Source: a virus (lineage: Duplodnaviria > Caudoviricetes). Taken from it: a stretch of DNA of 53,525 nucleotides. The stretch lies in IMG/VR virus record IMGVR_UViG_3300010047_000004, positions 1 through 53,525 of that record, one strand, 5' to 3'. Both the position numbers and the translations under genes were made by a program. The notes beneath the pieces are model-generated. The model was not told the origin of the DNA, did no database searches, and saw only the letters and a list, made by a program, of their open reading frames with translations. Shown one piece after another: positions 11,230-53,484 of this stretch. Within the stretch, counting starts at the first letter, position 1. Each line of letters opens with the position of its first letter.

Positions 11230-11735
11230 TGGCGATTCCTGACTTCGCCGGAGAAGCGGCGGGTTATGCCGCCAAGGCTCGCCGGTTCTTCAAGTGGCAA
11301 CTGCGCATCAAGACCAAGCAGAGCGGCTACTTCAGACAGCCGCAACTCGCTGATCCGCAGATGCGTGCGATTGGCGAAGCGATGATCACGGCGCAGAAGG
11401 CACGCTGGTCAGTGGCGAAGGATGCTTACGGCAATCCGGCGCCCAAGCTCAAGACGCGCTACGCCATCGTCAAGCAGAAGGTCACCGGCAAGCGGGCGAT
11501 CCGCGACAACGTGCTGACCGGCATGCTGTCGTCCAACTTCACTTTGCGCAAGGCTTCGGGGAGACTGATCCGCGCAGAGAACACAGCGAAACAGGCTCGA
11601 GATCACGCTCGCCGCGCCCAGGGCTACGCGGAGATGATCGGCTTCGCGCCGGACGATCAGAACGTGGTGTTCCAGGCGGCGAACTCGCAGTACGGCGTGT
11701 ATCTCAAGAGAGGCTGGGTGACCGTGCGTGATTAG
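11229..11735 (+). CDS. Neck/tail completion protein
   Basis: Basic protein with KLKTRYAIVK...RDNVLTGML segment; ATG overlaps previous stop; position in connector cluster. Confidence 0.55.
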   Translation: MAIPDFAGEAAGYAAKARRFFKWQLRIKTKQSGYFRQPQLADPQMRAIGEAMITAQKARWSVAKDAYGNPAPKLKTRYAIVKQKVTGKRAIRDNVLTGMLSSNFTLRKASGRLIRAENTAKQARDHARRAQGYAEMIGFAPDDQNVVFQAANSQYGVYLKRGWVTVRD

Positions 11736-36835: not shown

Positions 36836-37240
36836 ATGACCGAAACCATTCCGACTCCGACCCGGTTACCCTTCCGCGCCGGGTCCATTCAAATGCGGCA
36901 CGGTTCCTACTGGGCCGTCTACACCGCTTCCAAGGGGAATCAGGTGCAACTCAACACGCAGACCGCCGATTCTGTGGCTGCGCTCCGGTGGTGTGCGGAG
37001 CGGGTTGCGGCGGTTCTGCGCGTGAAGCTCTTCACCATCGAGACGATTGCTAATGGCGCGGGGACCGAAGGCTACGGCTACGGGCTCTCCGCAGCCCAGC
37101 GAGCCGAAATCCGCGCCGCCGTCGAAGCGGCTCAAGGTGACGCTCAAGCAGGGACCACCGCTGGAAGGACCGGGGCTGGTCGCAGCATTAAAGCGGCTGG
37201 TCGAAATCGGGCGAAGGCTGGAAAGGGAGGAACGCGCTAA
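36836..37240 (+). CDS. Small protein resembling an integrase arm-binding domain; candidate directionality factor
   Basis: AGSIQMRHGSYWAVYTASKGNQVQLNTQTAD..AA pattern; stop overlaps integrase ATG. Confidence 0.5.
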   Translation: MTETIPTPTRLPFRAGSIQMRHGSYWAVYTASKGNQVQLNTQTADSVAALRWCAERVAAVLRVKLFTIETIANGAGTEGYGYGLSAAQRAEIRAAVEAAQGDAQAGTTAGRTGAGRSIKAAGRNRAKAGKGGTR

Positions 37241-39009
37241 TGGCCGCAAGAGCATTTCCAAAACCCGCACGCCGGACAGCCATCGGGATTAAGCGCGTCA
37301 GCTTGCTGAAGCAGGTCGGCAACTACTCCTTCGACGGACAGGGCAACAAGTTCGCCCTCCTGGCCGACAAGTACGATTGCGACATTCCCGCCGAACTGAT
37401 GATCGAAGACAAGGGCTACAGCGGCACTGACTTTAACCGGCCTTCGATCCGGCTCGCCAAAAAACAGATCCGCGCTGGCGTGGCGAACGCCGTCGCATTC
37501 CCCTGGATAGACCGCTTCGCCCGCGACGTCGAAGGCGGGCTCGCAACCATCCGCGAGTTCCTTGAACTCAAGGCCCACGTCCTCCTGGGCGACCTGGGCT
37601 GGTATCAGGACAGCGGCTGGTTCAAGATGCAGATGAACATGTTCCTCACCGTCGCCCAGTATCAGCGGGACGACATTGCGGAGAAGTCCCGCTACGGCGT
37701 CATGGCAAAGCTGGCGAAGGGCCTCGCGCACTTCGGGGCGCCCTATGGCTGGCACATGGTCACCGGGCGCGAGATCGCGGCGCGGGCGCTGAACGCGGGC
37801 GAGGAAGTGCCGGTTGGCAGACCGCAGAACTTCTACGAACGGCGCGTGAACGAACTGGAAGTCGTGCAGCTAATCGGTGAACTCGCCCTGGCCGGAGGGC
37901 GCGACGGTTCTCTGCGCGGCATATGCCGGGAACTGGATTCGCGGGGAATCAAGACTCCCGGCGGCAAGCTGGGCTGGAATCCGATTACCGTTTCCGTCCT
38001 GGCGAATGACCTGACGTATTCGACCGGCGAATGGTGGTACGGCAAGCGCAAGTTCATCGAGCCCAAAAAAGTTCGCAACCCGGAAGCGGAGCGGCATAAG
38101 GTCCGCACCGTGGCGGTGTTCAAGCCCCGCGAGGAGTGGGCTGGCAAGATCGAAATGCCCGGTGGCGGCATCTGGACGCCGGACGAGCAAGCGGCCATCA
38201 TCGAGGGCCTGAAGCGCAATGGCGCCGCATCCACCGGCAAGCCCGCACGGCGAGCCGAAGACGGCGGTCAGGTGGCGATACTCAGCACGCTGGTTTCCTG
38301 CGGCGCCACCGTGATCTCCGGCGAGGGCATCGGTGAGGAGTGCAAAAAAGCGATGGCGCCCGCGCATGGAAGTTCGGTGAAGGACGACGGCACGCGGACG
38401 CTCTATTACCGCTGCACACACCGGCACAAGACCGAGGGACATTACGAGTGCGATTCCAAATCCGTTCGCGCCGACATTTTGCATCCCGGCGTTTGGAACG
38501 GCCTGAAGACCGCCGTCTGCGACAACCTGCAAGCCTTGGTCGCGGAGAAGTTCGGTGAGGTGGTCACGCCGGACGACGAGGCCGAACTGGCTCGCCTCCG
38601 TGAAGAGCGGAAGCGGAAGGAGCAGAAGCGGCGCGAGGCTATGAGAAAGGAGATCGAAGCCGACTCCGATGAGGACAAAGCGGAGTATGCTGGGCTGGTG
38701 GCGAAATATAAAACCGAACTCGCCCTCTTGGACCGGCGCATCGAAGCCGGAGCCGGAGAGGTTGAGCCGGAGCAATACGACCTCGCCACAATTCAGCGGC
38801 TAGCCCGCAAAGCTTTCCAAACGACCGACCCGGTGGAGCAACAAGCCATCCTGCTGGACTGGATTCCGGCTGGCGGCGTGCGCTATGCGAATGGCTGGGC
38901 GGAAATCACCATCCTGGTTCGCCTGAATGTTGTTAATTGTAAGCTGCCTGAACGTGCGATTTACAATAAGCAACTCCAGGTAACGACCAGGGTACGGATC
39001 GCGGCGTGA
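37240..39009 (+). CDS. Large serine recombinase (integrase)
   Basis: Catalytic RVS...Q, DKGYSG..FNRP, IDRFARD, APYGW, recombinase domain, Zn ribbon (LVSCG...C...YYRC...C), coiled coil. Confidence 0.95.
   Translation: MAARAFPKPARRTAIGIKRVSLLKQVGNYSFDGQGNKFALLADKYDCDIPAELMIEDKGYSGTDFNRPSIRLAKKQIRAGVANAVAFPWIDRFARDVEGGLATIREFLELKAHVLLGDLGWYQDSGWFKMQMNMFLTVAQYQRDDIAEKSRYGVMAKLAKGLAHFGAPYGWHMVTGREIAARALNAGEEVPVGRPQNFYERRVNELEVVQLIGELALAGGRDGSLRGICRELDSRGIKTPGGKLGWNPITVSVLANDLTYSTGEWWYGKRKFIEPKKVRNPEAERHKVRTVAVFKPREEWAGKIEMPGGGIWTPDEQAAIIEGLKRNGAASTGKPARRAEDGGQVAILSTLVSCGATVISGEGIGEECKKAMAPAHGSSVKDDGTRTLYYRCTHRHKTEGHYECDSKSVRADILHPGVWNGLKTAVCDNLQALVAEKFGEVVTPDDEAELARLREERKRKEQKRREAMRKEIEADSDEDKAEYAGLVAKYKTELALLDRRIEAGAGEVEPEQYDLATIQRLARKAFQTTDPVEQQAILLDWIPAGGVRYANGWAEITILVRLNVVNCKLPERAIYNKQLQVTTRVRIAA
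38929..38974. other. Candidate attP: 46-bp imperfect inverted repeat with central AA
   Basis: GTTGTTAATTGTAA...TTACAATAAGCAAC arms; AT-rich island in the integrase 3' end. Confidence 0.55.
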
Positions 39010-39093: not shown

Positions 39094-39321
39094 ATGACCG
39101 ATCCGGTGCTGGTCTTTCATCGTCCCGCCGGTCGCGGCTGCGAGGAGTGGCTGCATCTGCGCAAGGACGGCCTATTCCATTACCACTGGCATGGTCCGGC
39201 GTGCTGGCGCGGGCGCCGACCGCTGGTCGAATACTCGATGACGCCCGAAGCCGCGCTGGAAAAATTCCCCGATGATGCGGAGAAGATCCGCGCCGCTGTC
39301 GCTCATCAGGAGGTCGCGTGA
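39094..39321 (+). CDS. Hypothetical protein
   Basis: ORF overlapping the methyltransferase start (GTGA). Confidence 0.6.
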   Translation: MTDPVLVFHRPAGRGCEEWLHLRKDGLFHYHWHGPACWRGRRPLVEYSMTPEAALEKFPDDAEKIRAAVAHQEVA

Positions 39322-40589
39322 ATGGCCTCTCCCTCTGCGCCGGAGTCGGCATGCTTGACCTCGCCGTCGAGTCCGTCTTCCCCTCCTACCGATGCATCGC
39401 CGGAATCGAGAACAACGCGCAAGCGGCACGCCGGTTCCGGCGCCGTTTCCCGGCTGCAAAAGTCTTCCGCGATGTCGTGGGATTCGATGCACGACCCCTC
39501 GACGGACTCGTGGATTGCGTTACTGCGGGCTGGCCGTGCCAGCCGCATTCCTGCGCGGGTAACCGCCGCGGCGCGGGCGACGAACGATGGATCTGGACCG
39601 ACATCGCCAGGATCATCGACGAGTGCGGAGCCGCCGTCTTCTGCGGAGAAAACGTCTACGGCATCCTGCGCGACACCGATTGCCCAACTGAGCGATTCGC
39701 AGACCTGGATGACGCCGCAACTCACCCTATTGGGGGAATGGGAATCGTTCTGCGGGATTTGGCCGCGCTGGGGTTTGTCGTCACGTGGGGAAGTCTTCCA
39801 GCTTCCAGCGTGGGCGCCAGCCATCAACGCTGGCGAACTTTCTTCCTGGCCTACCGCGACGTCGAAGGACGCGAGATCCTCCGCGAGGCGTTCCACCATG
39901 ACCGGCGTGATGCACGACGGCACGACGCTGAACGATGCGATCCGCCAGTGGCAGACGCCGGACGCGGGCTTCTCGCAATCGGGGCACGGCCAGCGTGGGG
40001 GCTCGAGATCGAACGGCTCGCAGAGCGGTCGCGACCTGAAGGCCCAGGCGCAACGCTGGCGCACGCCGGACGCTGGGGACAGCGGGAACTACATCGACCC
40101 GGTGACCGTGCAGACGGGACTGGACTCGCGGGGAATGGAGCGCACGGTGGACCTGTCGAATCAGGCGGAATACTGGCAGACGCCGCGCACGCCCCAGGGC
40201 GGCAACAAGCTGGACCCGGCGACGGTCGCACGCAAGGGAATGGACGAGCAGGGCGTGAAGCGCACGGTGGATCTCAGCAACCAGACGGAATGCTTCCGCT
40301 CTTCGCCCCAGGTCCTAACGATCCTTCCTGGGCTGACGTTCTGCGAACGAGTCCGCATCTATCGCCAGCTTTGTCGGCAATTGAAGCGGCGTTTGCCGTC
40401 GCCCTACAACAAGGCGAGATCGATGTTCAAGCGGAGATTGAATCCGAATTTCGTGGACTGGCTGATGGGTGCGCCCATTGGCTGGTCGGACGCCGACCAC
40501 GCCTTCAATGCGACGGAAATGGAGTCGTACCTCTCCAGGCTGCGGTCGCATATTCGGTGCTTGCTAGGAGGTTGAGTGACCTGTCCTGA
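39318..40589 (+). CDS. DNA (cytosine-5)-methyltransferase, catalytic polypeptide
   Basis: Motif I LSLCAGVG, IV AGWPCQPHS, VI ENV, VIII VGASHQRWR, X RLQCDGNGVVP. Confidence 0.9.
   Translation: MNGLSLCAGVGMLDLAVESVFPSYRCIAGIENNAQAARRFRRRFPAAKVFRDVVGFDARPLDGLVDCVTAGWPCQPHSCAGNRRGAGDERWIWTDIARIIDECGAAVFCGENVYGILRDTDCPTERFADLDDAATHPIGGMGIVLRDLAALGFVVTWGSLPASSVGASHQRWRTFFLAYRDVEGREILREAFHHDRRDARRHDAERCDPPVADAGRGLLAIGARPAWGLEIERLAERSRPEGPGATLAHAGRWGQRELHRPGDRADGTGLAGNGAHGGPVESGGILADAAHAPGRQQAGPGDGRTQGNGRAGREAHGGSQQPDGMLPLFAPGPNDPSWADVLRTSPHLSPALSAIEAAFAVALQQGEIDVQAEIESEFRGLADGCAHWLVGRRPRLQCDGNGVVPLQAAVAYSVLARRLSDLS
39709..40575 (+). CDS. Overlapping-frame C5-methyltransferase second polypeptide (TRD repeats and motif IX)
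   Basis: Four W(P/Q/R)T(P/A) repeats and RRLNPNFVDWLMGAPIGW in the +1 frame; start uncertain (frame open from 39322). Confidence 0.75.
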   Translation: MTPQLTLLGEWESFCGIWPRWGLSSRGEVFQLPAWAPAINAGELSSWPTATSKDARSSARRSTMTGVMHDGTTLNDAIRQWQTPDAGFSQSGHGQRGGSRSNGSQSGRDLKAQAQRWRTPDAGDSGNYIDPVTVQTGLDSRGMERTVDLSNQAEYWQTPRTPQGGNKLDPATVARKGMDEQGVKRTVDLSNQTECFRSSPQVLTILPGLTFCERVRIYRQLCRQLKRRLPSPYNKARSMFKRRLNPNFVDWLMGAPIGWSDADHAFNATEMESYLSRLRSHIRCLLGG

Positions 40590-41512: not shown

Positions 41513-41541
41513 AAAAAAGCGGCTGACCGTCGTCAGCCGCT
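41513..41541 (-). terminator. Minus-strand terminator-like hairpin
   Basis: A run followed by AGCGGCTGAC-CGTC-GTCAGCCGCT. Confidence 0.55.
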
Positions 41542-41645
41542 CTACCTGCTGAATCCCACCTGAACGGCCCGTCATAACCGCTCAGGTTTAGAGCGCCGCC
41601 CAATATTTTTGGGAGACACCGAACGGCGCCCATAGGAGACGTCCT

Positions 41646-42584
41646 ATGACAAACGCATCCGCTAATAATCATCGCACAGAACCATTCATTTGTGTCCCCC
41701 AGTCCCTCATCCTGCGCAAGGATGTATCGCCGGTTGCGCTAAAAGTGCTCCTGGTCCTTTATTCGTTCTGTAACAGGCAGACCGGCAAGTGCAACCCGAA
41801 GCGGGCGACTCTGGCGGCGCGTCTGGGTTTCAGCCTGAGCACACTGGATCGCGGCATGGCCCAACTGCGCGACCTGGGCGTGGTGCGTTGCGGCTGGAAT
41901 ACCGGGCGCGGATGCTCCTACGAATTCCCCACTCCCGGCGAGTGGAAAGCGGCGCCCAGACCCGTCAAACCTGACGAACCAGCTTCGTCACGGGTGACAA
42001 ACCAGCTTCGTCACCAGCGACAAAGCCAAGCCCCGCTATCTATATATGAACCAGATGTTTTTGAACCAGAGGTTCTTAGCCGTGCCGCCGCCACTACTGG
42101 AGAAAGTAGGGAAACGGCGGCGGCGGCGGCGGCGAAAGATGCTGCGCATAACACAAAACACCCGGAGGGGGTGGAACCGGCCTCCGTTCCGGCTCGCCCA
42201 GCTTCAACCCAGGTTGAGAAATTAACAACCCCGGTTGAACCCCAGGCTCGCCCGGTGAGCCAGGGGTCGTGCTCCGAAGCCGAAGCCCTGGCCTGGGAAC
42301 TCCTGGCTGAACATCCGCAACCTGGGCTACCCCTGAAGGCCGTCGCGGAGATCGAGAAGGTTTTGCGGCGCGACCCGGCGGCGGCGGAAGTCATTCGGGC
42401 GCACCACCCGGCGTGGTGCGAGTACTGGGCGAGTTTACCGGCGGAAAAGTTTGTGCCCATGCTGTGGCGCTGGATAGCCGAAGGCGAATGGCGCATCGAG
42501 CCGGTGGTGCGCAAGCCGATGCTCGTGGCCGGGAGGATTATCGATGGCCGTAAGATCCGTTTTGTTGAACCGCTACGCCGATGA
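41646..42584 (+). CDS. Replication initiator with N-terminal wHTH
   Basis: ALKVLLVLYSFCN..TGKCNPKRATLAARLGFSLSTLDRGMAQLRDLGVV; internal iteron-like repeats; C-terminal FVPMLWRWIAEGEW. Confidence 0.75.
   Translation: MTNASANNHRTEPFICVPQSLILRKDVSPVALKVLLVLYSFCNRQTGKCNPKRATLAARLGFSLSTLDRGMAQLRDLGVVRCGWNTGRGCSYEFPTPGEWKAAPRPVKPDEPASSRVTNQLRHQRQSQAPLSIYEPDVFEPEVLSRAAATTGESRETAAAAAAKDAAHNTKHPEGVEPASVPARPASTQVEKLTTPVEPQARPVSQGSCSEAEALAWELLAEHPQPGLPLKAVAEIEKVLRRDPAAAEVIRAHHPAWCEYWASLPAEKFVPMLWRWIAEGEWRIEPVVRKPMLVAGRIIDGRKIRFVEPLRR
41972..42070. repeat. Putative replication origin: two 20-bp iterons plus AT-rich tract
   Basis: TGAC(G/A)AACCAGCTTCGTCAC at 41972 and 41995, then TATCTATATAT and two TGAACCAGA. 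Confidence 0.65.
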
Positions 42585-48430: not shown

Positions 48431-48472
48431 AGCCCCGCGTTCCGCTCCGGCGGCGCGGGGCTTTTGCTTTTT
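48431..48472 (+). terminator. Rho-independent terminator
   Basis: AGCCCCGCG...CGCGGGGCT followed by TTTGCTTTTT. Confidence 0.8.
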
Positions 48473-48847: not shown

Positions 48848-49081
48848 ATGACAAACAAACGCAGTCACTCAGAGAGCAGTATCACGGTACTTGATTACTT
48901 CGTCGGCGGCGCCCTGTGCTTCGCCGCGGCTGGCTTTTTGCTGCTGGCACTGTCAGCGACATTTAGCACGGTTGCTGCGGCGCCGACAGTCAGCACGGTC
49001 GGCGCATGGGCGGCAATCACTGGACTAGGCGGCGCAGTAATCGCGGCTGTCGTGATGCTGCTTGTTGATCTGAGCAATTAA
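48848..49081 (+). CDS. Small two-transmembrane protein
   Basis: Two hydrophobic segments; ATG 10 nt after the -10 box. Confidence 0.6.
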   Translation: MTNKRSHSESSITVLDYFVGGALCFAAAGFLLLALSATFSTVAAAPTVSTVGAWAAITGLGGAVIAAVVMLLVDLSN

Positions 49082-49092
49082 GGGAGACACAA

Positions 49093-49950
49093 ATGGCACG
49101 CAAACGAACACCGAAACCCGATCAGATACCGTCCTTTGACGGTCGCGACCTGACTACCCAGGATGTAATCCTGATATCAACGTCTGGCGGCAAAGACTCA
49201 CTCGTGACCATGCATGTTGTTCACGCCCTTGCCGTTGCCCAGGGCGTGACTCACAAGCTGCGAGCAGTGCATTGCGACCTGGGACGCATGGAGTGGCAAG
49301 GGACTCGCGAACTAGTGGAAAAACAGTGCGCCATGTACGGCATTCCTCTATACGTCGTCAGCCGTCCCCAGGGAGACTTGCTGGCACATGTGGCTGAACG
49401 CGGCAAGTGGTATAGCCCCAAACAGCGGTATTGCACAAGCGACCATAAGCGCGATCAAGTGACGAAGGTGATCACGCGCCTAGTGGCAGAGCACATTGAC
49501 ACCCTGGGCGCCCAGGGCGCCGTGCGCATCCTGAGCGTTATGGGGCTCAGGGCGCAAGAGTCCGATGCACGCAAAGCGAAACGACCGATAGCCCACAATA
49601 AACGCGCTAGCAACGGTCGGCGCATTGTGACTGATTGGTTGCCAATCCATCAGTGGACTGAAACTCAGGTATGGGACCTGATTCACTCCGAAAATCTCCC
49701 CTACCACTACGCATACGACCTGGGCATGCCCAGGTTAAGCTGCGTGTTCTGCATTTTTGCGCCGAAACCTGCGTTGTTGTTGGCTGGATATCATAATCGC
49801 GCACTGCTCAGTGAGTACGTGGCAACGGAGCAAGCGACAGGTCACACGTTCACAGGAAAGATAGCCCTGGTAAACATCGAAGCGACACTGAACGCGGGTT
49901 ATGTGCCGACCGCAAAGGTATCTAGTGCATCCTGGGCGCAATGCGCCTAA
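49093..49950 (+). CDS. PAPS reductase family (PP-loop, Fe-S) protein
   Basis: STSGGKDS, RYCTSDHK, GLRAQESDAR, LPIHQWTETQVW, AYDLGMPRLSCVFCI. Confidence 0.9.
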   Translation: MARKRTPKPDQIPSFDGRDLTTQDVILISTSGGKDSLVTMHVVHALAVAQGVTHKLRAVHCDLGRMEWQGTRELVEKQCAMYGIPLYVVSRPQGDLLAHVAERGKWYSPKQRYCTSDHKRDQVTKVITRLVAEHIDTLGAQGAVRILSVMGLRAQESDARKAKRPIAHNKRASNGRRIVTDWLPIHQWTETQVWDLIHSENLPYHYAYDLGMPRLSCVFCIFAPKPALLLAGYHNRALLSEYVATEQATGHTFTGKIALVNIEATLNAGYVPTAKVSSASWAQCA

Positions 49951-50001
49951 CTCCCCTGATGAGTCCCTGCAATGGGACGAAACGCCGTGAGGCGTAGGGA
50001 G
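49951..50001 (+). ncRNA. Type I hammerhead ribozyme 1
   Basis: CTCCC-CTGATGA-GTCCC(TGCAAT)GGGAC-GAAA-CGCC(GTGA)GGCG-TA-GGGAG; predicted cleavage after 49996. Confidence 0.93.
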
Positions 50002-50010
50002 ACACAAACG

Positions 50011-50265
50011 ATGACGAAAAAGACGAGAAGAGTACTTGAGGCAATCACGTATATAACCAAACTTCAGTTTTCATGCGATGTTATTTCGCGCCGTGACATT
50101 GAAGCGATGTTCGATTCGGTTGATTTCTCCGACCCAGTTACAGCCGTAGCAACCGTCGAATCGGACGCTGTCGCTTGCACTGTCCATTTCCACTTGCAGA
50201 CTGGCGGCGCCCAGTTCTCCAGGTCGCTTTATGCGGTAACGCGGATTGAATCGGAGGTTAACTAA
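50011..50265 (+). CDS. Hypothetical protein
   Basis: ATG 9 nt after the GGGAG of ribozyme 1. Confidence 0.7.
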   Translation: MTKKTRRVLEAITYITKLQFSCDVISRRDIEAMFDSVDFSDPVTAVATVESDAVACTVHFHLQTGGAQFSRSLYAVTRIESEVN

Positions 50266-50267
50266 CC

Positions 50268-50489
50268 ATGGAAAGACCATACATCGTAGGTTTCGACAAC
50301 AATACCGAAACGTCGTTTGACGTGACGGTTCACGGCGCCACATGTGACGGCGCCCAGGAATGGACTCGTGATTACTTCGGTCACGCTGACGGTTCACGCG
50401 ATTACCGCAATAGGAATCACGTTGAATACCTGTGGAGTGACTTTGATGGTAATCACACTTTCCGCGTTCACTTGGGAGGTTCACGCTAA
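50268..50489 (+). CDS. Hypothetical protein
   Basis: GGAGGT RBS. Confidence 0.7.
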   Translation: MERPYIVGFDNNTETSFDVTVHGATCDGAQEWTRDYFGHADGSRDYRNRNHVEYLWSDFDGNHTFRVHLGGSR

Positions 50490-50707
50490 TGAAATTTCGC
50501 GACTTGGCAATTGGCGCCACTTTTGAATTCGATCACTCTGACTTGCCGTGCGCGTGTTTTCAGATTGCGCATGGTCCATGGGTTAAGGTTTCCGCACGGA
50601 AGTATCAATGGCTTGCTGGCGGTTCCGAAATCAGAGTAGGCAGCATTAACGCGACCGTGCGCCCTGGGGATGATTGCGGCAAACGCTGGATTTTCAAACG
50701 GCGTTAA
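50489..50707 (+). CDS. Hypothetical protein
   Basis: GGAGGT RBS, TAATG overlap; begins MKFRDLAIGATFEF. Confidence 0.7.
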   Translation: MKFRDLAIGATFEFDHSDLPCACFQIAHGPWVKVSARKYQWLAGGSEIRVGSINATVRPGDDCGKRWIFKRR

Positions 50708-50763
50708 CTCCCCTGATGAGTCCCTGCAATGGGACGAAACGGCGCCCTGGGCGCCGTAGGGAG
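50708..50763 (+). ncRNA. Type I hammerhead ribozyme 2
   Basis: Same core; stem III CGGCGCC(CTG)GGCGCCG; predicted cleavage after 50758. Confidence 0.93.
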
Positions 50764-50772
50764 ACACCCACT

Positions 50773-51489
50773 ATGACGACGAATAAACGGAAACCAAACG
50801 GCTACAAACGGCTGCTACAGGATGACAATTACAAGACAGTCAAAGGCGAGTCCCTAGGCTGGCTGACTGCGATTATGTACTTGGCGCCAGCTATGTCCTC
50901 AGGCGTTCTTAACGTGTGCCTAGGCGCAACGGCATGGTGCATAGCGCTATGTCTCAACACGGCTGGCATGGGACGGTTCCGCAACGTGCAAGCGGCACGT
51001 GTTGCGAAAACAATGTTGCTCGCATCTAGCCGTGCGTTGTTTCTGGCATGCCTGAGGTATGACATAGGGATGTACGTGCGCCGTGCTGCTAAACGCGGCA
51101 TGCGGCTGGCTGTCAGGATTAACGGCACGAGTGACCTACCATGGCTGGCTAAAGAAATGGCGCGGTCATTTCCGACAGTCCAGTTTTACGACTATACGAA
51201 ACTGGCAAAGGCTGAACTGCGGCAATTGCCCAACTATCACATCACGTACTCGTATAGTGGCGAGAATTTATGCGAGTCCCTGCGAGTACTCGCACAGGGC
51301 GTCAATGTCGCTGTCGTGTTCCATGTGCGCAAGGGCATGCCGTTACCTGAGACTTGGCATGGTTACCGTGTGATTGATGGCGACTTGCACGACTTGCGAT
51401 TCCTAGACCCGAAGGGCGTGGTAGTCGGTTTACGTGCAAAGGGACTCGCTATCAACGCGGACAGTCCCTTTATCGTGTTGGCGTCCTAA
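50773..51489 (+). CDS. GP88-family phage protein with three-Cys motif
   Basis: YLAPA..SG..NVC..AT..C...CLNTAG, AVRINGTSD, QFYDYTK, NYHITYS, NVAVVF, VIDGD.HDLRFLDP.GVVVGL.AKG. Confidence 0.8.
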   Translation: MTTNKRKPNGYKRLLQDDNYKTVKGESLGWLTAIMYLAPAMSSGVLNVCLGATAWCIALCLNTAGMGRFRNVQAARVAKTMLLASSRALFLACLRYDIGMYVRRAAKRGMRLAVRINGTSDLPWLAKEMARSFPTVQFYDYTKLAKAELRQLPNYHITYSYSGENLCESLRVLAQGVNVAVVFHVRKGMPLPETWHGYRVIDGDLHDLRFLDPKGVVVGLRAKGLAINADSPFIVLAS

Positions 51490-51545
51490 CTCCCCTGATG
51501 AGTCCCTGGGACGGGACGAAACGGCGCCCTGGGCGCCGTAGGGAG
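51490..51545 (+). ncRNA. Type I hammerhead ribozyme 3
   Basis: Same core; loop II TGGGAC; predicted cleavage after 51540. Confidence 0.92.
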
Positions 51546-51554
51546 ACACAAACG

Positions 51555-51755
51555 ATGAGACTACGAGCAACCATCAAACGAACTGAAACCGATACGCATC
51601 GATTCATTCACTTTGTTTTTCCGAAGGGCGTGAATCCGTTTATGTACGAACACGTGCTGCGGCGCAACCTGGGCGCACGCCCTTATTCCGAAGCGTTCAG
51701 CATGAACGCTCAGGGAGAGTCATTGGTAATGTTCGGCGCACGCAAACGGCGTTAA
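51555..51755 (+). CDS. Hypothetical protein
   Basis: ATG 9 nt after the GGGAG of ribozyme 3; stop abuts ribozyme 4. Confidence 0.7.
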   Translation: MRLRATIKRTETDTHRFIHFVFPKGVNPFMYEHVLRRNLGARPYSEAFSMNAQGESLVMFGARKRR

Positions 51756-51810
51756 CTCCCCTGATGAGTCCCTGGGACGGGACGAAACGGCGCCACGGCG
51801 CCGTAGGGAG
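51756..51810 (+). ncRNA. Type I hammerhead ribozyme 4
   Basis: Same core; stem III CGGCGC(CACG)GCGCCG; predicted cleavage after 51805. Confidence 0.92.
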
Positions 51811-51815
51811 ACACT

Positions 51816-52046
51816 ATGACGATTAACAAACATGTTCAGTTGATCAACAACGATACTCGCCTATCGTTGTTCTTTTTTCGGTTCCATTTGCGCAATGGGC
51901 ACACGCGCCTATTCTGCTTTCATTGCGAGTCCCTAGTGTCGGCATGGTCAAGCTTGATCAAGCGTGTTGCTGCCCAGGGATACGACCTGTCAGCAATTGC
52001 GGCTGTCGAATTGGAATCGATGGAATCACCCAGGGAGAACAACTAG
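51816..52046 (+). CDS. Hypothetical protein
   Basis: ATG 5 nt after the GGGAG of ribozyme 4. Confidence 0.7.
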   Translation: MTINKHVQLINNDTRLSLFFFRFHLRNGHTRLFCFHCESLVSAWSSLIKRVAAQGYDLSAIAAVELESMESPRENN

Positions 52047-52047
52047 C

Positions 52048-52353
52048 ATGCGTGCCGCGGCGGTCCACTTTTTTCTGTCGCTTGCTCTGCGACTTTCACG
52101 GCACGCTGACGTGCGTGCGTGCCTAACTATGACTCTTGCAGACGTAGAAGACTGGCATAACGGCGCCGTGCCGCCGACCGCTGATACGCCCTGGTACGGC
52201 ACGCACTGTCCTAGTCCCGTGCCGTGCTGCAATCCTCGCGATCTAGACCTACGTGCCGTTTGCCCAGGGTGCGCCGATACTGTGCCGTACTCTGATGTCG
52301 CCCAGGGCGCCGTGTTCTGTGAACGTTGCGCCCTGGTATCACTCGTGCCGTAA
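52048..52353 (+). CDS. Cys-rich hypothetical protein
   Basis: AGGGAG RBS; CPGC...CERC; start uncertain. Confidence 0.5.
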   Translation: MRAAAVHFFLSLALRLSRHADVRACLTMTLADVEDWHNGAVPPTADTPWYGTHCPSPVPCCNPRDLDLRAVCPGCADTVPYSDVAQGAVFCERCALVSLVP

Positions 52354-52394
52354 GATACCCCGCAGTACCTCATTACAGCCCCACAGTTGAAACG

Positions 52395-53155
52395 GGCGCC
52401 CAGGTCGCAAGACTTAGGGCGCCCTTAGTGTTTTAGGGCGTGCCCAGGATGCGCCCAGGGGAGTCGGCAGCATGCCCAGGGCGCCGACCGTCCCAGGGCG
52501 CCGACAGCGTGTCCAGGATGCGCCGCCCAGGGGATGTATAAACGCTGAATAAAGCAGTGCTACATGTTGTAACAGTACCCCTGTAAGTTGTTGATAATCC
52601 CACAAGTGAACACATGGTTTCTGAGCGTTCCTGGGCGCATGGTTGCGTCAATTTTTTCCTGGGCTATCAGGGTATTACCTATAGGCGAAACTCAACCGAA
52701 ACTGAGCGAAACTCAGGCGAATTTATCCTCCTCCTATCCTGTGGAAAAACCTGCTAGAAACCTAGCAGAGATCAGGGCGTGCCGACAGCCGTTTGGATAA
52801 ATATTCAGTATCGTGAATAAATATCCATAGCCGTTTGGACAGGTCGCGACTCAGGGCGCCCAGGGGTATCGGACAGGGCGCCCAGGATGCGCCGACCGTC
52901 AGCCGTCCCAGGGCGTGCCCAGCATGCCCAGGATTACCGCGCACGTGCGCCCAGGGCGCCCAGGATGCGCCGCCCAGCATGCCGACAGCGTGCCGCATGG
53001 GCGCCGACAGCGTGCCCAGGATGCGCCCAGGGCGTGCCGACCGTCCCCAGGGCGTGCAATCCTATTTCAGACAGCCTAGTCTGATTCCAACATTAGTCCA
53101 GCTTATATAAGGCGTTCAGTTGAAAAAATTACATAGCGACCTGGGCGTGCCGACA
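52395..53155. repeat. Non-coding low-complexity region of GCGCCCAGG/GCCGACAG/GGGCGTGCC motifs
   Basis: Two dense blocks (about 52395-52535 and 52850-53060) of recurring short motifs. Confidence 0.75.
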
Positions 53156-53242
53156 GAGGATTTCACCCCTACGGCGCAAATTAGTTTTCCGCCTTTGTTC
53201 TCAGTGGTTTAGCGGCGGTGCTTTGTTTTCAATAGGATGCGC

Positions 53243-53406
53243 TAACTGGCTGTCTTTTCAGCTAGATAGCTAAACAGTTTGGTTTCATGCGGTTAGCATA
53301 AAGGCAATAGAATCAGGCAGATAGCTAACTGCAACAAAGCAAAGGCGTTAGCTAAGTGCTTGAGCGGATTGGAGTTAGCTAAGTCGTTTGCAATCAACGC
53401 GGTAAC
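53243..53406. repeat. Tandem array of six 27-28 bp TAA...TAGC units with IHF-like half sites
   Basis: Units begin at 53243, 53271, 53299, 53326, 53353 and 53380. Confidence 0.7.
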
Positions 53407-53484
53407 GTTACACGTAACGTGCGGCGCCCTGGGCATGCGCCAGCCAAGGCCAGCGAGTCGGTTCGATGCCATGTTCGGTGTTTC

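Follow-up and report, generated by a model that had tools for sequence, protein, structure and literature searches.

What do self-cleaving ribozymes do between the genes of a phage operon? The question is raised by the IMG/VR virus record IMGVR_UViG_3300010047_000004, the whole of which (53,525 nt; linear, with a completeness estimate of complete) is the window analyzed here. Four hammerheads (HH1 to HH4) lie inside 1.9 kb of this window and bound blocks of three, one and one genes, and in each of them one strand of stem I is also the Shine-Dalgarno (SD) sequence of the next gene. The role of many bacterial and phage self-cleaving ribozymes is an acknowledged open question (PMC6155905, PMC6765202; both cited here from excerpts). 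The locus provides a clean test case, consisting of four near-identical minimal type I hammerheads that hold the next gene's only ribosome-binding site (RBS) as part of stem I, a further junction of this operon that lacks a ribozyme and is a natural control, and a relative, contig L020, with ribozymes at other junctions.

Anatomy and identity of the hammerheads

All four copies present the same order of segments: CUCCC, CUGAUGA, a GUCCC-loop-GGGAC hairpin, GAA, the stem III hairpin, A and GGGAG. The hammerhead core (C3-U4-G5-A6-N7-G8-A9 and G12-A13-A14) is intact in every copy, as is the A15.1-U16.1 pair; the stem III hairpin opens with A and closes with U, and the cleavage triplet is GUA, with A at H17. 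Stems I and II are each 5 bp in length and stem III is 5–8 bp, with no mispair adjoining the core in alignments to the covariance model R1 described below. The acceptance rule of Perreault et al. (2011; PMC3088659, cited throughout from excerpts) asks for a core surrounded by three helices whose pairs next to it are Watson-Crick, and this arrangement is found in all four copies. The topology is that of type I, with an open stem I and a loop capping each of stems II and III. In HH1, CUCCC occupies 49951–55, CUGAUGA 49956–62, the stem II hairpin 49963–78, GAA 49979–81, the stem III hairpin 49982–95, A17 49996 and GGGAG 49997–50001.

The sequence of loop II is UGCAAU in two copies, including HH1, and UGGGAC in the other two, including HH3; both are GNRA tetraloops between U and Y. 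Stem III exists as CGCC/GGCG or CGGCGCC/GGCGCCG with pairing preserved, as CGCC-GUGA-GGCG in HH1, as the palindrome CGGCGCC-CUG-GGCGCCG in HH2 and as CGGCGCC-AC-GGCGCCG in HH4. Cleavage is predicted after A49996, A50758, A51540 and A51805, and the predicted 5' ends (49997, 50759, 51541 and 51806) agree with those proposed in the initial annotation, whose coordinates and features for the four repeats are all present in the sequence and whose assignment to type I is borne out by all of the sequence and structure criteria examined, R1 included. According to the same annotation, loop II and stem III are the sole points of difference among the copies. These elements do differ, but so do the spacers between GGGAG and ATG (ACACAAACG, ACACCCACU, ACACAAACG and ACACU in HH1 to HH4, respectively), and HH2 and HH4 share 10 additional identical bases (CAAACGGCGT) 5' of the TAA.

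A chance origin of the four repeats is excluded. The core pattern CTGATGAG-N(3-30)-CGAAAC has four matches, all on the + strand, versus 0.02 expected, and none of 100 shuffled sequences reached four; over the entire record the pattern occurs four times forward, never in reverse and never in a control read backwards. At minimum free energy every copy folds as the three-way junction of a hammerhead, with energies of -24.4 to -31.4 kcal/mol and z-scores of -3.3 to -4.0, and 0 of 200 shuffles folded equally well.

The comparison with Rfam hammerhead models suggested in the initial annotation had a divided outcome. Release 15 at gathering thresholds returned no match in the whole window, but in E-value mode over 49800–52000 all four copies were found below threshold by RF00008 Hammerhead_3, at 28–32.5 bits versus a gathering score of 48.5. 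RF03152 RAGATH-1-hammerhead was also reported, at 19–21 bits versus 56.3, along with chance-level matches to eeev_FSE and DUF805b, and membership in the RAGATH-1 family was rejected. Membership in type III was ruled out, as only 7 nt are present where stem I would need a hairpin.

A dedicated covariance model, R1 (55 positions, 18 pairs), was constructed from 112 distinct phage type I hammerheads, a training set that contained neither the window nor L020. The training hammerheads were identified by a structural scanner on viral contigs fetched by pattern and annotated with their own stems, and those with stem I shorter than 4 bp or a total length above 80 nt were also excluded. When R1 was applied to both strands of the 53.5-kb window at E <= 10, it recovered exactly the four copies, at 48.1–51.5 bits (E-values 3e-14 to 4e-13), and no further match, a result to be read in light of a training set chosen by a scanner that demands a canonical core. 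In the training alignment 94.8% of the cells are paired, versus 57.4% when shuffled, double-sided changes occur in 16 of the 18 pairs, and the covariation score is 0.744, versus 0.145 for shuffled alignments and <=0.12 for slid partners; unrelated phages retain the hammerhead fold with wholly different stem sequences. As judged from sequence, the motifs are hammerheads by each criterion examined save the Rfam thresholds. Phage type I hammerheads with a short stem I, which also include those of contigs L061, L018, L194 and others, are probably under-annotated by standard pipelines.

The Shine-Dalgarno sequence as a strand of stem I

The initial annotation had placed a stop codon against stem I and GGGAG 5–9 nt before the next ATG, and the geometry is exactly so at all four junctions. 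The upstream TAA (49948–50, 50705–07, 51487–89 and 51753–55), in each case the stop of a real upstream open reading frame (ORF), is directly 5' of CUCCC, the next ATGs (50011, 50773, 51555 and 51816) lie 9, 9, 9 and 5 nt past GGGAG, and each hammerhead fills the entire intergenic gap. GGGAG is the sole SD-like element before the four ATGs, the spacers containing no other GGAG, GAGG or AGGA, and GGGAG(G) or GGAGG 5–11 nt upstream also serves the ribozyme-free genes at 49093, 50268, 50489 and 52048. Because it is the only such motif and the same motif is found at ribozyme-free genes, GGGAG is credibly the SD. Overall, an SD-like motif was present 4–12 nt upstream in 22 of the 35 gene starts inspected.

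Masking of the SD was estimated with ViennaRNA, using 80 nt of upstream context for the uncut RNA. In the uncut RNA the three G residues of the SD are predicted to be unpaired with a probability (P) of 0.00–0.06, and in the isolated 3' product of HH1, HH3 and HH4 with P of 0.67–0.86. The stem I duplex alone has a computed energy of -7.0 kcal/mol, compared to -6.9 for SD:anti-SD pairing. The computed association energy of the two cleavage products is -5.3 to -8.9 kcal/mol, and the products should separate at cellular RNA concentrations.

The reading that we consider probable, by a modest measure of confidence, is that active type I hammerheads cut the operon RNA at the four junctions, yielding independent, insulated mRNAs in which de novo initiation is licensed by cleavage. 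The four hammerheads would be embedded in one + strand transcript (~48.8–52.4 kb), in which the 5' strand of stem I, CUCCC, follows UAA and the 3' strand, GGGAG, acts as the SD of the next gene. Once GGGAG had been transcribed, the three-way junction would form and the RNA would cut itself after GUA. The upstream mRNA would keep its stop codon and end in a compact ribozyme body with a 2',3'-cyclic phosphate, and the downstream mRNA would begin with 5'-OH-GGGAGACAC..., tied to the ribozyme by a 5-bp helix only, which would fall apart and expose the SD at the extreme 5' end. Five independent mRNAs would be produced (orf77 with the PAPS reductase gene; orfA–C; GP88; orfE; orfF–G), every downstream one with the same short, context-free leader, and masking of the SD would hold back de novo initiation on uncut RNA. 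5'-OH ends escape 5'-monophosphate-dependent decay, as is established enzymology. The analysis demonstrates the sequence, structure, conservation and geometry of these elements; cleavage in vivo, dissociation of the helix and effects on translation and stability are what we infer.

Other phage hammerheads and the competing readings

L020 is an IMG/VR contig of 54.8 kb that is ~80% identical to the window over orfB–GP88 and orfF–G and carries four hammerheads, each likewise built into a TAA-CUCCC...GUA-GGGAG module. Over the eight copies of the two phages stem I never changes, whereas variation in loop II and stem III leaves the pairing intact. The differences between the window and L020 start and stop at hammerheads. 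orfE and one hammerhead are found in the window only (51559–51752 is unmatched in L020), and the last hammerhead of L020 aligns with HH3 as well as with HH4; the interval from the 77-aa ORF to orfB is filled in the window by the PAPS reductase gene, HH1 and orfA, and in L020 by a hammerhead, an ORF without blastn similarity and another hammerhead; and orfB is preceded by a hammerhead in L020 and by a plain 2-nt junction in the window. At the junction 49079–49095 the ribozyme body is precisely missing, and the homologous L020 junction bears a hammerhead; thus, the hammerhead is a discrete, dispensable insert between stop and SD. On sequence comparison, the repeated stop/ribozyme/SD module marks cassette boundaries. 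Every copy has a loop II of the form U-GNRA-Y and a 5-bp stem I flanked by UAA; the eight have no pseudoknot in common. A pseudoknot between loop II and the tail 3' of stem I (CCCA with UGGG) was rejected, as it fits some copies only and does not co-vary. The same four hammerheads as in L020 are also found on L393 (DASTMP010000475.1), a contig as long as an entire phage genome (54.8 kb), which is binned in a Blastocatellia (Acidobacteriota) metagenome-assembled genome; this is a weak hint at the host of the phage group, and the binning could be spurious.

The prevalence of this geometry was examined in a pool of 133 distinct type I hammerheads from viral contigs (IMG/VR), from which the rows duplicating the window (L001–L004) and L393, as a duplicate of L020, had been dropped before counting, as had L067 and L248, which were spurious scanner matches (a 3-bp stem I or odd core in coding sequence; a 70-nt "stem III"). 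Seventy-nine were sampled without regard to stem I, consisting of 20 from a stem II pattern, 6 from GP88 loci and 53 from a generic core pattern, the last from among 119 matches listed. None of the 79, among the matches listed, has an SD in stem I; 41 have a recognizable downstream SD, with the start codon 20–112 nt from the cut, and 38 have no SD or start recognizable by a simple rule. A targeted scan for a stem I with CTCC in its 5' strand yielded 46 hammerheads at 33 loci, and 10 of these, at eight loci (L103, L105, L112, L114 x2, L118, L143, L173, L191 x2), have the SD in stem I. In the 10, the 3' strand of stem I is GGAG, GGAGG or GGAGGA, stems II and III are unrelated, and the start codon of an ORF of at least 40 codons lies 10–15 nt from the cut with no second SD. 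The rest of the targeted set has a downstream SD (20) or none that was recognized (16). L102, which has CUCCC/GGGAG and gcaATG, was rejected as an independent case, as its ATG opens only a 19-codon ORF and the real gene is served by a separate SD 56 nt downstream. With the four copies each of the window and L020, the class has 18 members, in which the start codon is 10–17 nt from the cut, versus 20–112 nt in the 61 with a separate downstream SD. The distance to the start codon therefore shifts together with SD position across phages, which is co-adaptation. By this sequence survey, the SD-in-stem-I design is rare but recurrent.

Stop codons were located wherever the upstream ORF spanned 40 codons or more, as it did for 113 hammerheads. 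The stop lies 0–4 nt before stem I in 68 (34 at exactly 0; TAA in 52 of the 68), inside the ribozyme in 34, 22 of them at -8 to -10, where the conserved CUGAUGA core itself supplies the UGA, and farther off in 11. From these positions, stop-codon adjacency seems to be common to phage type I hammerheads in general and to have gone unremarked. Typical members share with the window copies their topology, core, a stop abutting stem I, frequent clustering (L061 x5, L018 x4, L194 x4) and a gene downstream. The typical form, however, has a stem I that is mostly 6 bp and not SD-like, a separate SD downstream and C at H17 (115 of 133), whereas in the window stem I is CUCCC/GGGAG and is the SD, the start codon is 10–14 nt from the cut and H17 is A. 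A scan of genome contigs found, among the 119 matches listed, one unrelated type I hammerhead (L319) and L393, the copy of the L020 phage; the others failed the structural scanner. In many phage type I hammerheads the sequence of the stem I 5' strand recurs in the tail just past that stem (UUAGAC-aaucaa-GUCUAA in L194:15-1384; also in L255, L269, L261, L284, L015, L017 and L019). Such a repeat could let the new 5' end snap into a terminal hairpin after cleavage, which would block re-ligation and might stabilize the mRNA. No such repeat is present in the window copies, with the exception of HH2, where GGG...CCC is a weak one.

Bacterial hammerheads in the neighborhood of prophage genes were described by the hundreds by Perreault et al. 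(2011; PMC3088659), who proposed that clustered prophage hammerheads cut long phage transcripts to operon- or gene-length mRNAs, demonstrated that three tandem arrangements cleave in vitro and that one does so in vivo, and reported a halovirus hammerhead 13 nt 5' of a start codon. Protein-free operon processing, as put forward in the initial annotation, had therefore already been proposed in 2011, with cleavage both in vitro and in vivo. The idea of polycistron processing recurs in a 2019 review, in which the function is termed unresolved (PMC6765202), and a 2026 paper describes type I hammerheads as usually DNA-encoded motifs of bacteria and bacteriophages. As in the earlier clusters, the window hammerheads are close together on one strand and bound single phage genes or short blocks; a further common trait is that the flanked genes are small and not conserved (PMC3088659, PMC6155905). 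The clusters tested were mainly type II and mixed types, whereas those of the window are type I, and the excerpted text makes no mention of an SD as a stem I strand or of a stop abutting stem I, although the figures and Dataset S1 may hold cases (PMC3088659). No description of natural hammerheads in which stem I is the SD was found in the literature searched, which was thin on subscription journals and without supplements, and the geometry is apparently an undescribed variant of clustered phage hammerheads.

Wieland and Hartig reportedly designed a hammerhead aptazyme that masks the ribosome-binding site in 2008, and RiboJ-type insulators are engineered self-cleaving ribozymes with the RBS outside the ribozyme. 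When the SD is masked in a twister stem, the active ribozyme gives 5- to ~100-fold more reporter than the inactive one (PMC5052635, cited from excerpts). These devices resemble the window copies in that the SD is paired in a ribozyme helix and the cut would free an mRNA with a short leader, but they are synthetic and usually ligand-controlled, whereas the window copies, as read from sequence, are natural, ligand-free and located between cistrons. In ribozyme-assisted polycistronic expression (pRAP), ribozymes placed between cistrons yield single-cistron messages that carry the RBS at their 5' end (PMC9872166). The proposal for the window likewise has one transcript converted to monocistrons that share one leader and have an RBS close to the 5' end, although pRAP is engineered and its RBS is outside the ribozyme, whereas the window SD is inside stem I. 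If cleavage licenses translation, the locus would represent a natural counterpart of RBS-masking aptazymes, RiboJ-type insulators and pRAP, and a concrete function for phage hammerheads; if not, it is still a well-documented set of hammerhead-bounded gene cassettes in a temperate phage.

Several observations weigh against a licensing of initiation by cleavage. The curated hammerhead models (clan CL00010) fall short of their gathering scores, and the topology of Hammerhead_3 is wrong for these motifs; this shortfall is attributable to model composition and topology, with no defining nucleotide missing. Stem I is just 5 bp and has no consistent pseudoknot or loop-loop partner, and the rate of cleavage at cellular Mg2+ is uncertain. 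The predicted equilibrium pairing of stem I has P of ~0.9 in HH1, 0.5 in HH2, 0.4–0.7 in HH3 and 0.05 in HH4, and therefore folding would have to be co-transcriptional or ribosome-assisted, at least for HH4. In the 3' product of HH2, GGG is predicted to be unpaired with P of only 0.01–0.03, because it pairs with CCC 5 nt downstream, so that the idea put forward in the initial annotation, sequestration of the SD until self-cleavage, agrees with predicted pairing in the uncut RNA and release in HH1, HH3 and HH4, and is not fully borne out for HH2. The junction at 49079–49095 shows, from its sequence, that this initiation region needs no ribozyme; the count of 0 in 79 means that SD gating cannot be what phage hammerheads are for in general, and at the window locus stem I could overlap the SD through incidental compaction. 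There is accordingly a real possibility that the ribozymes serve for processing and insulation only, through a fast, constitutive, co-transcriptional cut that leaves the SD masked for an instant, the SD overlap reflecting genome compaction in which the ribozyme adopted an existing SD as a stem I strand, with separate mRNA stabilities and a context-free leader, rather than translational gating, as the gain. Such an explanation is consistent with the same SD and spacer at the ribozyme-free junction, with the unselected hammerheads among the matches listed, none of which places the SD in stem I and the majority of which possess a separate one 20–112 nt from the cut, with the processing role proposed by Perreault et al. 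(2011; PMC3088659) and in the 2019 review (PMC6765202), and with the working of the engineered pRAP (PMC9872166). Against it stands the recurrence of the SD-in-stem-I design in eight other unrelated contigs, with the start 10–15 nt from the cut and no second SD; the invariance of stem I in eight of eight copies also fits a dual constraint, though SD function alone could explain it.

Ribosomes might instead govern the element. A terminating ribosome would cover CUCCC and the core, melt the ribozyme and free the SD for coupled re-initiation, in which case untranslated transcripts alone would fold and cut and cleavage, instead of licensing translation, would mark or separate uncoupled RNA. The stop positions given above agree with this proposal (0–4 nt before stem I in 68 of 113, 34 of them at 0, and inside the ribozyme in 34, 22 of them at the core UGA; distance 0 in all four window copies), but geometry is its sole basis, short gaps are usual in compact phage genomes, and constructs of Perreault et al. 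cleaved in vivo (PMC3088659), which makes it unlikely. More open to belief, if still doubtful, is a protein-free translational licence in which the SD is freed irreversibly by self-cleavage or transiently when a ribosome at the UAA melts stem I; the hammerhead would then sense upstream translation, the outcomes being a coupled polycistron or release of a stand-alone 5'-OH, SD-first mRNA. Were that true, the stop-abutting geometry (102 of the 113 surveyed) would mean that the general function still missing for phage hammerheads lies in an interplay of ribosome and ribozyme. The 55–72 nt repeats (ribozyme plus GGGAGACAC leader) might instead act mainly as homologous boundaries for the gain, loss or swap of cassettes between related phages, with ribozyme activity secondary or vestigial. 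The differences from L020 that begin and end at hammerheads (orfE with one hammerhead; PAPS reductase-HH1-orfA; the hammerhead before orfB) and the 10 extra upstream bases shared by HH2 and HH4 argue for such a role, yet a plain DNA repeat needs no 11 core nucleotides, core-adjoining G-C pair or compensatory stem III changes, all kept in eight of eight copies, and unrelated phages keep the fold with entirely different stems, and we regard recombination as very unlikely to be the primary explanation. Finally, the 5'-OH GGGAG of an excised segment might pair with its own 3' CUCCC and be re-joined by the reverse reaction or an RtcB-type ligase, producing circular or shuffled mRNAs. Stem I is identical in the four copies, as this would require, and spliced or circular products were raised as a possibility in 2011; their authors could not detect them (PMC3088659), and re-formation of stem I would re-mask the SD, so that ligation appears highly improbable.

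Gene context of the locus and minor observations

The window encodes a large terminase, portal, major head (capsid) protein, a tape-measure-like protein, an integrase and a DNA methyltransferase (Table 1). The structural genes and the large serine-recombinase-type integrase identify a temperate tailed phage, and the position of the integrase beside the methyltransferase likewise points to a temperate lifestyle. The ribozyme-bearing gene string is on the + strand near the right end of the window (~48.8–52.4 kb). Its upstream boundary or promoter region is likely to be the region of a terminator-like hairpin that is followed by ~390 nt without a long ORF; a consensus scan around 48444–48461 identified no promoter. 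orfA, orfB and orfC are tightly packed (50011–50707), with no ribozyme in between.

Table 1. Coordinates of features in the window (HH, hammerhead; bit scores are for model R1)
Feature	Position	Strand	Remarks
Large serine-recombinase-type integrase	37240–39009		phrog_95, E 2.9e-42
DNA methyltransferase, adjoining the integrase	39318–40589		phrog_363
Terminator-like GC hairpin, then T-run	48444–48461	+	consensus scan only
77-aa hydrophobic ORF, operon gene 1	48848–49081	+	kept in L020, 75.7% nt identity
Ribozyme-free junction TAA-GGGAGACACAA-ATG	49079–49095	+	stop/SD/spacer module without CUCCC...GUA body
PAPS-reductase-like gene	49093–49950	+	PF01507, phrog_424; TAA abuts HH1
HH1, type I hammerhead, 51 nt	49951–50001	+	49.9 bits, E 8.6e-14
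orfA, small ORF	50011–50265	+	no Pfam or PHROG match
orfB, small ORF, own GGAGG/GGGAGG-type SD	50268–50489	+	no Pfam or PHROG match
orfC, small ORF, own GGAGG/GGGAGG-type SD	50489–50707	+	no Pfam or PHROG match
HH2, type I hammerhead, 56 nt	50708–50763	+	48.1 bits
GP88-family gene	50773–51489	+	PF17338, E 5.7e-42; phrog_1617
HH3, type I hammerhead, 56 nt	51490–51545	+	50.5 bits
orfE, 66 aa, enclosed by HH3 and HH4	51555–51755	+	absent from L020
HH4, type I hammerhead, 55 nt	51756–51810	+	51.5 bits, E 2.7e-14
orfF	51816–52046	+	kept in L020
orfG, own GGGAG SD, no ribozyme	52048–52353	+	kept in L020

The sole match of orfE in a collection of 5.8 billion proteins was itself, at the sensitivity of that search, and the identical protein is present on three contigs. 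Among GenBank records of isolated phages, tblastn searches with orfE and orfA found no match, and a blastn search with 49000–52100 found no ribozyme homologue, its only match being 76 nt in the GP88 gene of Puniceispirillum phage HMO-2011. GP88 was considered as a ribozyme-associated gene and rejected, as R1 detected type I hammerheads at only 2 of 80 GP88-encoding viral loci (±3 kb), both of which already belonged to its training set; Rfam at gathering thresholds reported two tRNAs only in the first 20 of the 80 loci.

The palindrome GCGCCCWGGGC occurs 14 times in the window, versus 0.22 expected (0 of 100 shuffles reached 14), with 12 occurrences in the last 4 kb (49508–53434) and the others at 11614 and 15515. 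Among the sites are the hairpins that form stem III in HH2 and HH3, and others fall in a repeat-rich non-coding region at 52.4–53.4 kb, which is ~77% conserved in L020, and the palindrome could be a protein-binding or iteron-like site adopted by HH2 and HH3 as stem III. Farther upstream, a strong bidirectional terminator (41516–41543) is located just upstream of an element at 41609–41655, TGGGAGACACCGAACGGCGCCCATAGGAGAC...ATGAC, which precedes an ORF starting at 41646 and aligns with the 3' half of the hammerhead and its leader. Its alignment score of 33–34.5, against 18.2 +/- 3.7 for shuffled sequences (maximum 34), is not significant alone, and the element may be a decayed ribozyme or leader copy.

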